Virus record (IMG/VR): IMGVR_UViG_2802429229_000002
Source of the DNA: a virus
Taxonomy: Duplodnaviria > Heunggongvirae > Uroviricota > Caudoviricetes > Straboviridae
Reading direction: 5' to 3' (one strand)
DNA: 4,068 nt
Positions 95-4,068 of the stretch are shown here, piece by piece. Under the pieces are notes generated by a model. The model ran no database searches. It worked only from the letters and a program-made list of their open reading frames with translations, and was not told the DNA's origin. The stretch's first letter is position 1. Each line of letters begins with the position of its first letter. A program made the position numbers and the translations under genes.

Positions 95-167
95 GGGTGC
101 AATTATTTTCTGTTGTGCAGAGTATGAGGCGCTATTTGACCTGGCTGGTCAGTGGATGAAACAACAG
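95..167 (-). promoter_or_regulatory. Candidate late promoter for the tail sheath operon (P2 PF-like), weak support
   Basis: On the minus strand an AATAAT -10-like hexamer (complement of 102..107) lies about 30 nt upstream of the FI ATG. An imperfect Ogr-type dyad, TGT-N12-CCA (plus 146..163; consensus TGT-N12-ACA, 5 of 6), is centred about 50 bp upstream of that hexamer. A 7-bp inverted repeat (110..116 and 161..167) brackets the region. No exact consensus dyad is present. Confidence 0.25.
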
Positions 168-196
168 ATAAAGAAAAGGCGGGCAATTCGCCCGCC
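168..196 (-). terminator. Rho-independent terminator between the cargo ORF and the tail sheath gene
   Basis: Perfect 7-bp GC stem GGCGGGC (178..184) and GCCCGCC (190..196) with a 5-nt loop. On the minus strand it is followed directly by TTTTCTTTAT (complement of 168..177). It lies about 175 nt downstream of the cargo ORF stop. Confidence 0.6.
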
Positions 197-371
197 TGTC
201 CTGATTTGTACTCACTCATTTTCCAACTGACTATTTACATAGTCCAAACGCTATCAAATCTGACTGTCTGCTTTGAGCGAGGTGCTGACATCCGCATGAA
301 TGTATGGAGCTGCCGCACACTCTAAAAATGATAGAACGTCTATATATTAATTATCCCTAAGTCCAGTTTTA

Positions 372-899
372 TTAATCAATTTTATTACTTTTACCTGCAA
401 CCTTTTTATTACAGTGATAATAAGAAATAGCACTAGCAAAATAGGATTTTGTCATCGACACGAAAAAATCCAACAAATCTGCCATGTTATCAATATCAAT
501 ATTTGGTTTAGTTTTACTGACTTTAGTAATCTTCATGTAGAAGTCCACAAACTTACTTTTTTCTTTATCCGTAATCTGATAATTCAATTGATGACTGATT
601 TTATTTCTTATGCTGTTAAAGTCTTTTATTCTTAAATATATTTCATCATAAGGGGGTTTTGCAGGCTCATGTTGTATTAAAGCTATTTTTTGTGAAAATG
701 TGAGTTTTGCATCACCCCAAGCTAACGAAGGATATCTTAATCCAAGATAATCAGTAATATACTTTTCAAGGCTCAAGTGCGCAGTAAGAAAGGCACCTAT
801 GAAGGCAACGTCAACCCCATCAACACGTTCCCATATGTTTTCATTTTCATCAGTCATACCTGTATACACAGCGGTTGATGCAAGATCTTTCCAGTCCAT
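372..899 (-). CDS. Hypothetical 175-aa cargo protein with a HEPN-like R-N-x3-H motif; candidate lysogenic-conversion or defence gene
   Basis: Uninterrupted 175-codon ORF. AAGGA Shine-Dalgarno (complement of 906..910) 6 nt upstream of the ATG, and an in-frame TAA two codons upstream of the ATG fixes the start. By eye the GC content is about 30% against about 50-60% in the flanking tail genes. Residues 98..103 are RNKISH (nt 591..608). No predicted signal peptide or clear transmembrane segment. I do not recognise a characterised family. Confidence 0.8.
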   Translation of the reverse strand: MDWKDLASTAVYTGMTDENENIWERVDGVDVAFIGAFLTAHLSLEKYITDYLGLRYPSLAWGDAKLTFSQKIALIQHEPAKPPYDEIYLRIKDFNSIRNKISHQLNYQITDKEKSKFVDFYMKITKVSKTKPNIDIDNMADLLDFFVSMTKSYFASAISYYHCNKKVAGKSNKID

Positions 900-934
900 G
901 CTTTATCCTTTTAAAGGTGAATTTAACGAGTTTA

Positions 935-963
935 ACTTTATCTCAACTCAATACTTATCTCAA
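935..963 (-). promoter_or_regulatory. Candidate sigma70 promoter proximal to the cargo ORF
   Basis: Minus strand reads TTGAGA, a 17-nt spacer, then TAAAGT. The predicted transcription start is about 28 nt upstream of the ATG at 899. The match is modest. Confidence 0.2.
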
Positions 964-1150
964 AATTTATGAGTGGACATAACATCCACAAAAAACTATT
1001 AAAGCCCTTTTACCTCTTATTATTGATGAAAATGTACATTTTTATAAAGAATGTCGAAGAACCTCCTCAGTGGAACTATCAACTACACATTGCAAGACTA
1101 GAGTATGTGCAAACCTTTTGACAAGGTTCTGAAATATTCATGGTGGCCTT

Positions 1151-1185
1151 ATTATATCAATTTATCTTCACTTTATACATTAACA
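1151..1185 (-). promoter_or_regulatory. Candidate extended -10 promoter distal to the cargo ORF
   Basis: Minus strand reads TGATATAAT (complement of 1151..1159), a perfect TGnTATAAT extended -10. The -35 is poor (TGTATA at 17-nt spacing). It would give a leader of about 245 nt. Confidence 0.3.
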
Positions 1186-1203
1186 TAGCATGATGTTGAT
1201 AAT

Positions 1204-1227
1204 GTCCGCTCCTAGCACAGAGCGGAC
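1204..1227. other. Perfect 8-bp inverted repeat (hairpin) without a U-tract, 62 nt downstream of the tail fiber assembly gene
   Basis: GTCCGCTC (1204..1211) pairs with GAGCGGAC (1220..1227) around an 8-nt loop. Neither strand has a clear T-run after it. It sits at the GC-composition boundary of the AT-rich island. Confidence 0.5.
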
Positions 1228-1288: not shown

Positions 1289-1816
1289 TTATTGCGGCAT
1301 TTCCGGCCATTCAGGATTTGCAGGATCCACACGGCTGACCAGAACACTGTAGCGTTCCCATGCTTCCAGTCGGCTACGCTCCTCATCTGTTGCCATGTTC
1401 AGCCTGACAGCGCGCTCCAGTGGCTGAATAACGCTTTCCGCTTCGGAAAGTAACGCGGCCTTTTGTGATTCTGCCTGTTGTTGCTGTTCGTCTGCCGTAT
1501 AAATCCGCTTAATCACGGCACCATCCTTAAACATCCATTTCCCTGAGTCATCAGCACGTCGGTTGGCGGTAATATCAGGAACCTCGACAACGCTGAAACC
1601 TTCAGGGTTGAGCGTTGAAGCATCTCTGGTGATGCCGACAATAATATTATTTTCATCGTAAACAATCTTTATCGTGTCTTCCTGAAAATTACTTACTTCC
1701 TCATACCAGTTTTTTCCGTCTTCGGACCATAACCAGATAACATCAAAATTCTTTGTTAGCTGATATTGTTCTTTTGTTTTTGGATTACCTGACTTAATGT
1801 TTTTTAAATGCTGCAT
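1289..1816 (-). CDS. G: Tail fiber assembly protein (chaperone)
   Basis: 175-aa ORF starting 3 nt after the tail fiber stop, with an AGGTG Shine-Dalgarno inside the 3' end of H. The sequence ([20 protein letters not shown] ... [13 protein letters not shown]) matches from memory the P2 G / lambda Tfa family, including the characteristic C-terminal tail. Confidence 0.9.
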
Positions 1817-1819
1817 AAT

Positions 1820-4068
1820 TTACACCTGCGCAACGTTATACCATGTGCCATTGATGTATTTTTGTATTGGTCTGAATACTGCTGGATCATCACCATCGAC
1901 TTCACCGACAATACCAAGCCCCGTGATTACATGGCCTGATTTTTCATACATCACGCCTTTTTGCATGGTCTGAACAACACGTGTGCCAAGTCTGACATCT
2001 CTCACATAGCGGGAATCAAAGTTACCGTAATCCGAGGGATTAACACGCCCCGTAATATTTATGGTTTTATTACTTTGAATACTTCCCGAGACAAAGCGCA
2101 TAACATGGACGCTATTAGCATAAACATCCAGATTACCATCACCATTTTGTTTAAAGCCCGTGTCATTATCACCCAAAACAATCGAATTACCGCCAAGAGC
2201 ACTGGATGTTCCTATACCCAGAGCACCATTCAATTGACCACCAGATAACGGCAGTGCACCGACATCTCCCGCTGTAGGTTTTCGCGTTGTGGTATAAAAC
2301 TCAGACCAGTCAGCCTCGAATCCGTAACCGTCACGAGCAGAACGATAAAAAATACCGCCGTTCTTATAATTAACGCGGAACTGGGCGGCGGGGCAACTTC
2401 CTTCACCGATATTAAAATGAAGAATTAACGTTGATGCCCCACTAATAGTTGCGTTATAGGCTCCGCTACTCCAGTTCCATCCAACGGCTTTATCATTCGC
2501 AACGGTGTCTCCTGTTTTTCCTGAAGCAAATGCACCAATATTTTTCGGCGTCAGGTTAATATCTGATGTTCCATCAAACGAAACGTTATTAATTTTACGG
2601 GCTGTTTTCAGCTTTGTTGCTGTCGCCGCATTGCCGGACAGTTCACCAGAAAGGCCAGCACTGAATGTCTGTTTCGCGCCCCATGTCTGGGCTTCGTCAA
2701 TGATTGGTACTCGTCTTGCTGTAATCGTGCGGCTTCCCGGATTTCCTGAAATACGCACCATAAAAAAGCGGTAGTTGGCTTTACTTACAGTGCTGCGCCA
2801 TACATGCATTGAGCGTCCCGAACCAGAATCATCACTCGGACCGACTGAGATGTTTATCAGGTTGCCATCAATGACGCCCCAGTCCATACCGTCGGGAATA
2901 TTGGTCATGTTATCCAGCCGAACGGTTATCAGACTGCCCGGCACAAAATCGTATGTCTGCCAGTCCAGACTGGATAGTTTTGCCACTGCGCCACCGATGC
3001 CCAGATTCAGAGGCAACGAAAAGGAGTTATATACTTCTCGCCATTCGGTCCATTTGCTCCCGGCGTAGACGCGCTCAAAAGTGCGCCCCTGTGTGGTTTC
3101 TGATTTCCCTGTGGTTGTGTAACGCTGCCAGACAGACACACCATCAAAACGTCTGATTACTTCCAGTATCCCAAGTAGTGTCGCGCCAACGGTGTCCAGC
3201 ATCGGACCATTGGTCGCTTTACCTGTAACGCTGTAAATACCTGGTGAGGTTACATCATTCAAATCACCGTCGTAATAACGGCTTTCTGACTGGTAGCCCA
3301 CTCTTGACCACGGCTCCCACTGTGGGTTCTCTGCATCCCACGAGGCCGAAAGACAGCGAACATAAACATTTCCACGGCTGGTCGTGTAACGCTGCGTTCG
3401 CGAGTAACCACCACCTTCAAGAACTTCAAGGAGTCCCTGACCATAACTTCCTTCTTCCGGATAGTTGCGGTCAAATGAAGCGATTGAGCCACTACTGTTT
3501 CGCCATAAACCAAGATGCTCTGCGCCTCCGAGCGTGTTCAGGTCAATGGTTGTGCTCAGGGGGCGTGTTGCAGACTGAACCTGACGCCAGTAACTCCACG
3601 GACCGTCTGAACCATTCCATGTGCCAGAAAGGTTGCGCATATAAACATTGCCTGTTCTGGTGGTATAACGCTGCATTCCTGAAAAATTACCGCCATTGAA
3701 TACCTCCAGTACACCGACTGCACCGTCTTCAGGGAAATTTTTAGCAGCCGTCGCGTTAGTGGATGTAGCTTTAGACCAGATACCTGAATAAGCCTTAACA
3801 GGACCAAACGTATTCAGATCAGCATCAACCGGCATTTCGCCATTGTTTTTCATAAACGTCAGGCTGGTAACGCCAACATTGTCCAGAAAAGCTGATTTAT
3901 CCTGGATATCTGCACCATTCTGATTTTTCGCCAGACGTGAATTTGCGTTGTCATTTGCTGTCTTGACCGCTTTTGGCGTTGCTGCCAATGACTCACTGGT
4001 GCTGTTTGTTGCACTGCTTAACTGAGTAAAGCCTTTTTCTGTCAGTGTGGCGTCAGGATGGCGGCGGG
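1820..4068 (-). CDS. H: Tail fiber protein (P2 H-like); the 5' end of the gene lies beyond the window end
   Basis: The ORF-track start at 3988 is an internal TTG. The frame stays open to the window edge, reading RRHPDATLTEKGFTQLSSATNSTSESL before AATPKAVK, so the true start is outside the window. At least 749 codons are in view. It has an N-terminal SSATNSTSE / LAATPKAVK motif, three internal QRYTT repeats, and a C-terminus (GIGTSSALGGNSIVLGDNDTGFKQNGDG ... NGTWYNVAQV) typical of P2-family H. Stop TAA at 1820..1822. Confidence 0.9.
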   Translation of the reverse strand, partial: RRHPDATLTEKGFTQLSSATNSTSESLAATPKAVKTANDNANSRLAKNQNGADIQDKSAFLDNVGVTSLTFMKNNGEMPVDADLNTFGPVKAYSGIWSKATSTNATAAKNFPEDGAVGVLEVFNGGNFSGMQRYTTRTGNVYMRNLSGTWNGSDGPWSYWRQVQSATRPLSTTIDLNTLGGAEHLGLWRNSSGSIASFDRNYPEEGSYGQGLLEVLEGGGYSRTQRYTTSRGNVYVRCLSASWDAENPQWEPWSRVGYQSESRYYDGDLNDVTSPGIYSVTGKATNGPMLDTVGATLLGILEVIRRFDGVSVWQRYTTTGKSETTQGRTFERVYAGSKWTEWREVYNSFSLPLNLGIGGAVAKLSSLDWQTYDFVPGSLITVRLDNMTNIPDGMDWGVIDGNLINISVGPSDDSGSGRSMHVWRSTVSKANYRFFMVRISGNPGSRTITARRVPIIDEAQTWGAKQTFSAGLSGELSGNAATATKLKTARKINNVSFDGTSDINLTPKNIGAFASGKTGDTVANDKAVGWNWSSGAYNATISGASTLILHFNIGEGSCPAAQFRVNYKNGGIFYRSARDGYGFEADWSEFYTTTRKPTAGDVGALPLSGGQLNGALGIGTSSALGGNSIVLGDNDTGFKQNGDGNLDVYANSVHVMRFVSGSIQSNKTINITGRVNPSDYGNFDSRYVRDVRLGTRVVQTMQKGVMYEKSGHVITGLGIVGEVDGDDPAVFRPIQKYINGTWYNVAQV

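Follow-up and report, generated by a model that had tools for sequence, protein, structure and literature searches.

What is encoded by the short, AT-rich gene that sits between the tail fiber assembly gene G and the tail sheath gene FI of a P2-like prophage? The question is raised by a stretch of 4,068 nucleotides of viral DNA from IMG/VR, here called the window (the whole stretch that was analyzed), in which a single open reading frame (ORF) occupies this interval. An initial annotation had read it as single-gene cargo with a HEPN-type motif and the layout of a standalone abortive-infection gene. Our literature search found no paper naming the cargo protein. We conclude with high confidence that it belongs to the HEPN superfamily and that its active-site motif is intact. 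As for its function, we judge it probable, with a good measure of reserve, that the protein is a stand-alone HEPN endoribonuclease, carried as a one-gene cassette in the G-FI hotspot and acting as an abortive-infection effector in the manner of HepS.

The Z/fun slot and its exchangeable cassette

All genes of the window are read on the minus strand (Table 1). The G-FI interval of P2 (NC_001895) consists of a terminator and fun(Z), so the slot that holds the cargo gene is the Z/fun locus, as the initial annotation had proposed. A 2026 survey counts the Z/fun locus among the defense hotspots of P2, together with one "within the tail genes"; the main hotspot is flanked by gpA and the portal gene (PMC13586616). 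In the blastn alignment with P2, homology is confined to positions 1 to 281 and from 1194 onward; the exchanged cassette therefore spans positions 282 to 1193, and it replaces 2071 bp of P2 comprising the terminator and fun(Z). The GC content is 32.8% in the cargo ORF and 32.7% in the cassette, compared to 47.3% in each flank, in keeping with the earlier description of the gene as AT-rich.

Table 1. Coordinates of the features of the window, ordered by position
Feature	Position (nt)	Strand	Details
P2 gene FI (tail sheath), first codons	1..73	minus	downstream flank of the slot
Intrinsic terminator	167..197	minus	stem 197..177 plus U-tract; 9 pairs, 7 of them G-C; z = -4.26
AT-rich cargo cassette	282..1193		912 bp; 32.7% GC; from blastn against the P2 region
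Cargo ORF	372..899	minus	175 aa, 528 bp; ATG start, TAA stop at 374..372
Codons R98-N99-K100-I101-S102-H103	591..608	minus	predicted HEPN Rx4H catalytic motif
Codons H41-L-S-L-E45, helix 1	765..779	minus	second invariant feature of the wider family
Ribosome-binding site AAGGA	906..910	minus	6 nt before the ATG; read from sequence
Three sigma-70-like matches	935..1160	minus	1160-1133, 1048-1019, and 963-935; candidate promoters only
Hairpin just after G	1204..1227	minus	dG -17.3 kcal/mol; no U-tract
P2 gene G (tail fiber assembly)	1289..1816	minus	upstream flank of the slot
Gap from G to cargo ORF			389 nt
P2 gene H (tail fiber), 3' part	1820..4068	minus	5' end beyond the window

The two sides of the slot are marked by secondary structures. 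The hairpin at 1204 to 1227 is kept in P2, P24E6b, and P24C9, and homology between P2-like phages stops directly past it, which places the left boundary of the cassette there. At the other side, the terminator with its stem at 197 to 177 lies in the conserved P2 backbone outside the cassette, just upstream of the pF promoter region. The gene had been described as followed by a terminator. A good one does exist, the sole good intrinsic terminator and the first past the cargo ORF, but it lies 175 nt downstream of the stop codon and belongs to the P2 backbone, not to the cassette. The hairpin and this conserved terminator bracket the exchangeable cassette, and the hairpin may be the recombination boundary; the Z/fun slot of P2 is documented here as a site of cassette exchange between two conserved hairpins.

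In other Peduoviruses the G-FI slot holds unrelated genes, namely, a HAD plus NUDIX pair, a pair encoding 373 and 75 aa, or genes for proteins of 177/197 aa. The 373-aa plus 75-aa pair occupies the slot of vB_EcoM-720R8 (locus L010, 348 to 1686), and the 177/197-aa proteins are encoded by co-directional ORFs labeled "FIG00644420" in P24E6b (L011, 403 to 996) and P24B2 (L012, 403 to 936). Both kinds of occupants are without a Pfam family and without similarity to the cargo ORF. When considered as distant relatives of the cargo protein, the FIG00644420 proteins proved unrelated (hhalign probability <1%). The slot occupants of these three phages are further uncharacterized cargo in a defense hotspot.

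P2 fun(Z) is the gene for T5 exclusion and FUdR sensitivity that maps to the G-FI slot. The cargo gene has this position in common with it, and both are AT-rich accessory cargo, non-essential for the phage; the initial annotation had accordingly kept a Z/fun allele as one option. The best BLASTP alignment with Fun(Z) (NP_046777) has an E value of 1.9 over 6 residues, the proteins are 175 and 528 aa long, fun(Z) runs antisense to the tail operons whereas the cargo ORF is co-directional with G and FI, and the DNA of the cassette is not homologous to P2. The allele is thus ruled out at the sequence level by alignment, size, strand, and DNA, and we assign it a negligible probability.

The cargo gene, its signals, and its carriers

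The cargo protein is an exact match to WP_105282398.1, annotated as "hypothetical protein." Both the ORF and the IRNKISH motif reported for it are present, the motif at residues 97 to 103 (nt 611 to 591, with the codon of I97 at 611 to 609), and the gene has a ribosome-binding site of its own (AAGGA, 910 to 906). The promoters proposed earlier do not stand up to comparison with chance: 6 promoter-like sites were counted, against 4.6 ± 2.0 in shuffled sequence, which is no excess, and the upstream region from 935 to 1160 is not conserved between contexts. One of these sites is overlapped by an AT-rich palindrome at 1019 to 1052, with 19-nt arms that are 84% complementary, which could be an operator-like site or a chance product of AT-richness.

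The 389-nt gap upstream of the ORF contains no tandem repeats and no Rfam family, indicating that it does not encode a conserved partner RNA. A noncoding RNA or type III antitoxin within the gap was accordingly rejected as a candidate, the gap also being unconserved between contexts. At the other end of the gene, positions 167 to 416 (minus strand) give a sub-threshold Rfam match to STnc150, an Hfq-binding sRNA (21.6 bits against a gathering threshold of 60; E value of 0.013 to 0.045), which spans from the 3' end of the cargo ORF to the terminator. This match probably stems from AT-richness and from the terminator itself; a 3'-UTR-derived sRNA ending at the terminator is possible.

Escherichia phage vB_EcoM-569R9 shares 98% identity with the window and likewise has the ORF annotated as "hypothetical protein"; prophages in Escherichia coli chromosomes are >99% identical to the window. 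Within INPHARED, vB_EcoM-569R9 is the only phage with the gene (L001, 1872 to 2423), present there as a coding sequence of 183 aa (552 nt) with 91% tblastn identity. The whole G-FI cassette region is found in 49 of 5,426 complete E. coli genomes (~1%). E. coli JJ2434 carries the cassette, and RefSeq calls its ORF hypothetical. If the cargo protein is an abortive-infection effector, about 1% of complete E. coli genomes would carry an unannotated one-gene immune effector that is missed by PADLOC 2.0 and Pfam.

When would such a gene be expressed? Like H, G, and FI, the cargo ORF points in the direction of the late tail operons, and no U-tract accompanies the hairpin after G, so expression could come mainly from late read-through and not from lysogeny. 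This layout, which sets the gene apart from fun(Z), and the fact that no promoter stands out are what one would expect of an RNase or RNA-binding factor that serves the lytic or late program of P2, transcribed by read-through from the V-W-J-I-H-G late operon and employed in host shut-off, counter-defense, or superinfection exclusion, instead of an abortive-infection sensor-effector. Such a role in the phage's own program fits poorly with the occurrence of the same gene in non-phage chromosomal islands beside Avs5, SIR2, and AbiV genes, in a satellite-like element, and in P2 slots unrelated to late operons, and we consider it unlikely.

Motif conservation, fold, and comparison with HepS

The cargo protein has no match in Pfam (even at an E value of ≤10), NCBIfam, or PADLOC (2.0), and PHROGs assigns it to phrog_5483, a group of unknown function (1.7e-59). 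A search of 5.8 billion proteins yielded only 24 relatives, all from Enterobacterales, with 58 to 99% identity. Conservation was assessed in two alignments, A1 with 22 close homologues and A2 with 70 distant relatives of 20 to 29% identity. In A1, R98, N99, K100, S102, and H103 are invariant in all 22 sequences, as is the surrounding block DFNxIRNKxSHxLNY. R98 keeps its invariance in A2, where conservation is at least 90% at N95, N99, and H103. H41 and E45, located in the first long helix, are invariant in both alignments. When 1.84 billion cluster representatives were searched with a profile, 368 proteins were returned at an E value of ≤1e-3, including 88 at ≤1e-10; nearly all matches are 150 to 220 aa long, and RNx3H is found in 139 of the 150 best representative matches. 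Three giant matches (P0038, P0146, and P0153) are of low complexity, resemble mucins, and lack the motif; they were discarded as false positives.

HEPN proteins are recognized by an Rx4-6H motif with a polar residue after R and by an acidic residue that is conserved in helix 1 (PMC3710099). The conserved R-N-x3-H and the helix-1 acidic residue of the cargo family agree with this published signature. The acidic residue was also sought in its typical HEPN form, Ex3[KR]; position 49, four residues after E45, is T, S, D, or N in A1, with no conserved K or R there. How much does the motif itself tell? Rx4-6H arises in 24% of shuffles of the cargo protein and RNx3H in 0.44%, so that the bare motif, from which the initial annotation had started, is weak evidence, and the weight of the argument comes from its conservation, the fold, and the profile matches.

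The AlphaFold (AF2) model of the cargo protein (pLDDT of 80.6, pTM of 0.75) predicts the all-alpha up-down helical bundle of the HEPN core fold. It resembles the HEPN structures of YggD/MtlR, HepS, HEPN-T, HepT toxins, Las1, AbiF, sacsin HEPN, and Cas13b, and it also matches the HEPN protein AF0298 (7.8). In Foldseek, HepS is the only credible PDB match (probability of 0.98 to 1.00, TM-score of 0.42 to 0.46); nothing credible was returned by a fold search of the viral collection BFVD. Sequence profiles lead to the same protein. Against the PDB, the A1 profile finds HepS with an E value of 0.016, and the A2 profile finds HepS with an E value of 6.4e-7 and the Csm6 HEPN domain with 0.0045. These matches to HepS and Csm6 align on the catalytic RNxxxH helix (NSIRNKISHQLNYQITDKE in the cargo protein, NNIRNKYAHKIEYIITDED in HepS), and R98-N99-K-I-S-H103 aligns to R100..H105 of HepS.

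Comparison of A2 family members with Pfam gives scattered sub-threshold matches, the recurrent ones being to HEPN families (HEPN_Cthe2314, Csm6_HEPN, MAE_28990, RiboL-PSP, Abi_2, and DUF4145). DUF4145 (PF13643) is matched by 1 of the 70 relatives (E value of 0.0093), and its threshold is not reached. The cargo protein and its family stay below the curated threshold of every HEPN Pfam family, so membership in Abi_2, DUF4145, or another curated HEPN family is not supported, and the family lacks a model in the libraries searched (Pfam, NCBIfam, and PADLOC). Profile and fold comparison, proposed in the initial annotation as the way to check the HEPN domain, hence gave no curated Pfam match, and it is the invariant R-N-x3-H, the AF2 model, and the A2 profile match to HepS that bear the domain out.

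With the HEPN superfamily at large (DUF4145, Abi_2/AbiD/AbiF, AbiV, AbiU2, RiboL-PSP, and Csm6 HEPN), the cargo protein has in common the four-helix core and the Rx4H motif with N after R; it also has an acidic residue in helix 1, though not the typical K or R four residues further on. The Abi-type families are, like the cargo gene, linked to defense islands and mobile elements. It differs from these other families in having no fused N- or C-terminal domain and in not being in an operon with R-M, MNT, or RT genes. A HEPN fold need not be catalytic, and the cargo protein could be an inactive regulator of the MtlR/YggD type (PDB 3C8G and 3BRJ), binding protein or RNA without cleavage. MtlR and YggD are housekeeping regulators in mannitol operons, and many of them are without the catalytic motif (PMC3710099). 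In the cargo protein, by contrast, R-N-x3-H is invariant or nearly so family-wide and the helix-1 acidic residue is invariant, and its gene is mobile and adjoins defense genes, the contexts examined being prophages and defense islands with no mannitol operon among them. There is also no Pfam match of the cargo protein to MtlR (PF05068) at an E value of ≤10, and the sequence profiles match the catalytic HepS and Csm6, not MtlR. A noncatalytic regulator is therefore very unlikely in our estimation.

HepS (STM14_3211; PDB 9OIJ and 9OIK) is encoded by the Gifsy-1 prophage of Salmonella Typhimurium 14028 (Sargen et al., Nature 2026, PMC13043305). It is a solo HEPN protein that is made constitutively without a partner and remains a non-toxic closed tetramer until triggered; opened by the siphovirus tail-tip protein J, it cuts the anticodon loops of tRNA-Thr/Ile/Ser, for which R100 and H105 are required (PMC13043305). 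HepS-like proteins are delimited as stand-alone proteins of <250 aa with RX4-6H and no partner gene, often on prophages, and the HepS homologue set contains 393 sequences (PMC13043305). The cargo ORF has the same properties, with 175 aa, a single domain, conservation of the ORF only, and residence in P2-like prophages, and HepS is both the closest solved structure and the closest characterized model for its product. The two are nevertheless distinct. Their sequences are significantly similar only over ~39 residues around the motif, identity is 14 to 17%, and the TM-scores given above are modest. Their carriers differ as well: the cargo gene occupies a tail-gene slot of a P2-like myovirus, and the HepS gene occupies a replication/antirepressor slot of a lambdoid siphovirus. 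A 42-aa HepS fragment had no tblastn match in phages, and the corresponding degenerate DNA pattern had 0 occurrences in genome contigs.

HEPN effectors in abortive infection, a solo prophage HEPN in the form of HepS, and the slot as a hotspot are already known, and with the characterization in 2026 of HepS as a prophage-borne solo HEPN abortive-infection protein, the novelty of the cargo gene is lower than was initially assumed. If it works as HepS and other HEPN effectors of abortive infection do, the cargo protein would be made in the lysogen and rest as an inactive homo-oligomer. A signal from the infecting phage, probably one of its proteins, would rearrange the oligomer so that R98, N99, and H103 of two protomers come together in a composite RNase site that needs no metal. 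The cutting of cellular RNA at this site, possibly in tRNA anticodon loops, would then stop translation, and this arrest would abort the infection, protecting the lysogen population and the prophage with it. If true, the cargo protein would add a second example, of independent evolutionary origin, of a solo HEPN in which one protein senses and kills, and it would be one member of a wider family that comprises several hundred clusters. Since its carrier is a myovirus and not a siphovirus, the trigger would have to differ enough to spare P2's own proteins. With 528 bp and two obvious catalytic mutants, the gene would also offer a compact system for asking how a partner-less toxin stays silent and what it senses.

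Contexts elsewhere and mobility of the gene

Does the gene travel alone? Seven kinds of context were compared, and conservation covers only the ORF, reaching at most from 15 nt before it to 47 nt after it; homology with the Pectobacterium copy, for example, begins 15 nt before the ATG. The confinement of DNA similarity to the ORF across contexts indicates that the gene moves as a bare one-gene unit. No neighbor is common to all contexts examined, and neither a partner ORF nor an MNT gene was found in them, confirming the earlier view that the gene has no partner.

The G-FI slot holds the gene in 7 of 10 IMG/VR loci. In the P2-like IMG/VR contigs L023 to L029, the cargo is 97 to 99% identical, and the neighboring genes vary much more, with G alleles at 76 to 100% and divergent C termini of H. 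Near-identical cargo beside divergent G and H points to independent exchange, either of the cassette or of the host-range genes next to it. Elsewhere the gene is found in the gpA-portal slot, in one case beside HicB and a PDC-S15 (FRG) gene; beside a P2 CI repressor, with a PIN-domain neighbor; after the tail fiber of another P2-type phage, adjoining AbiGi; and with an integrase and D5 primase in a satellite-like element, adjoining DUF4238. In chromosomal islands its neighbors are Avs5 (1463 bits), a SIR2 protein (PDC-S25), AbiV (2.9e-73) with PDC-S31/DUF2971, and an HTH-RT pair; DUF2971 also accompanies the RT. These neighborhoods associate the cargo gene with defense genes, an association that is not proof of a defense function.

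Could the gene instead encode the toxin of a toxin-antitoxin or addiction module, with an unrecognized antitoxin and with prophage stabilization, not phage defense, as its main role? The antitoxin could be a small protein, a noncoding RNA of the kind seen in AbiF-type systems, or an MNT-like factor that is not linked to the gene. Among the contexts, however, conservation is limited to the ORF and extends neither to the upstream gap nor to any of the flanks, and the gap is free of tandem repeats and Rfam matches. The contexts examined contain no MNT gene or other common neighbor, and no conserved adjacent antitoxin gene as expected of a HepT-MntA-type pair. HEPN-like ORFs do lie upstream of some homologues (see below) but are absent from P2 contexts, and HepS provides a precedent for a partner-free, non-toxic solo HEPN. 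We regard a toxin-antitoxin module as quite improbable.

The abortive-infection reading likens the cargo protein to HepS. A further possibility, to which we give less than even credence, is that it represents a separate family of solo HEPN sensor-effector RNases, one without a curated model, with a cue of its own (not the siphovirus tail tip) and/or an RNA target of its own, spread by bare-cassette movement. The proposed marks of this family are R-N-x3-H and, in helix 1, a His-x3-Glu that does not vary, and ~370 clusters (50% identity) match its profile. Its members would be bare one-gene cassettes moving between all P2 hotspots, satellites, and chromosomal islands.

Some homologues have a second HEPN-like gene nearby. 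In Pectobacterium sp. PL64, the ORF directly upstream of the homologue (L004, 5284 to 5784) encodes a 166-aa paralogue with the motifs HLVVEH ... KMRNKFAH. This paralogue matches the family with an hhalign probability of 97.6% (E value of 4e-12) and has a weak match to DUF4145 (17.8 bits versus a cutoff of 23.1). The homologue and its upstream paralogue are thus two solo HEPN genes in tandem, and tandem paralogues of this family could form hetero-oligomers with combined trigger specificities. A different arrangement is seen in Superficieibacter (L019, 4194 to 4706) and Dryocola (L020, 4181 to 4693), where an ORF of 170 aa with KKRNWLAH lies ~300 nt upstream of the homologue and adjoins an Avs5 or SIR2 gene. 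It was rejected as a member of the family (hhalign probability of 1.8%, with no Pfam and no PADLOC match) and may be another unmodeled HEPN-like gene.
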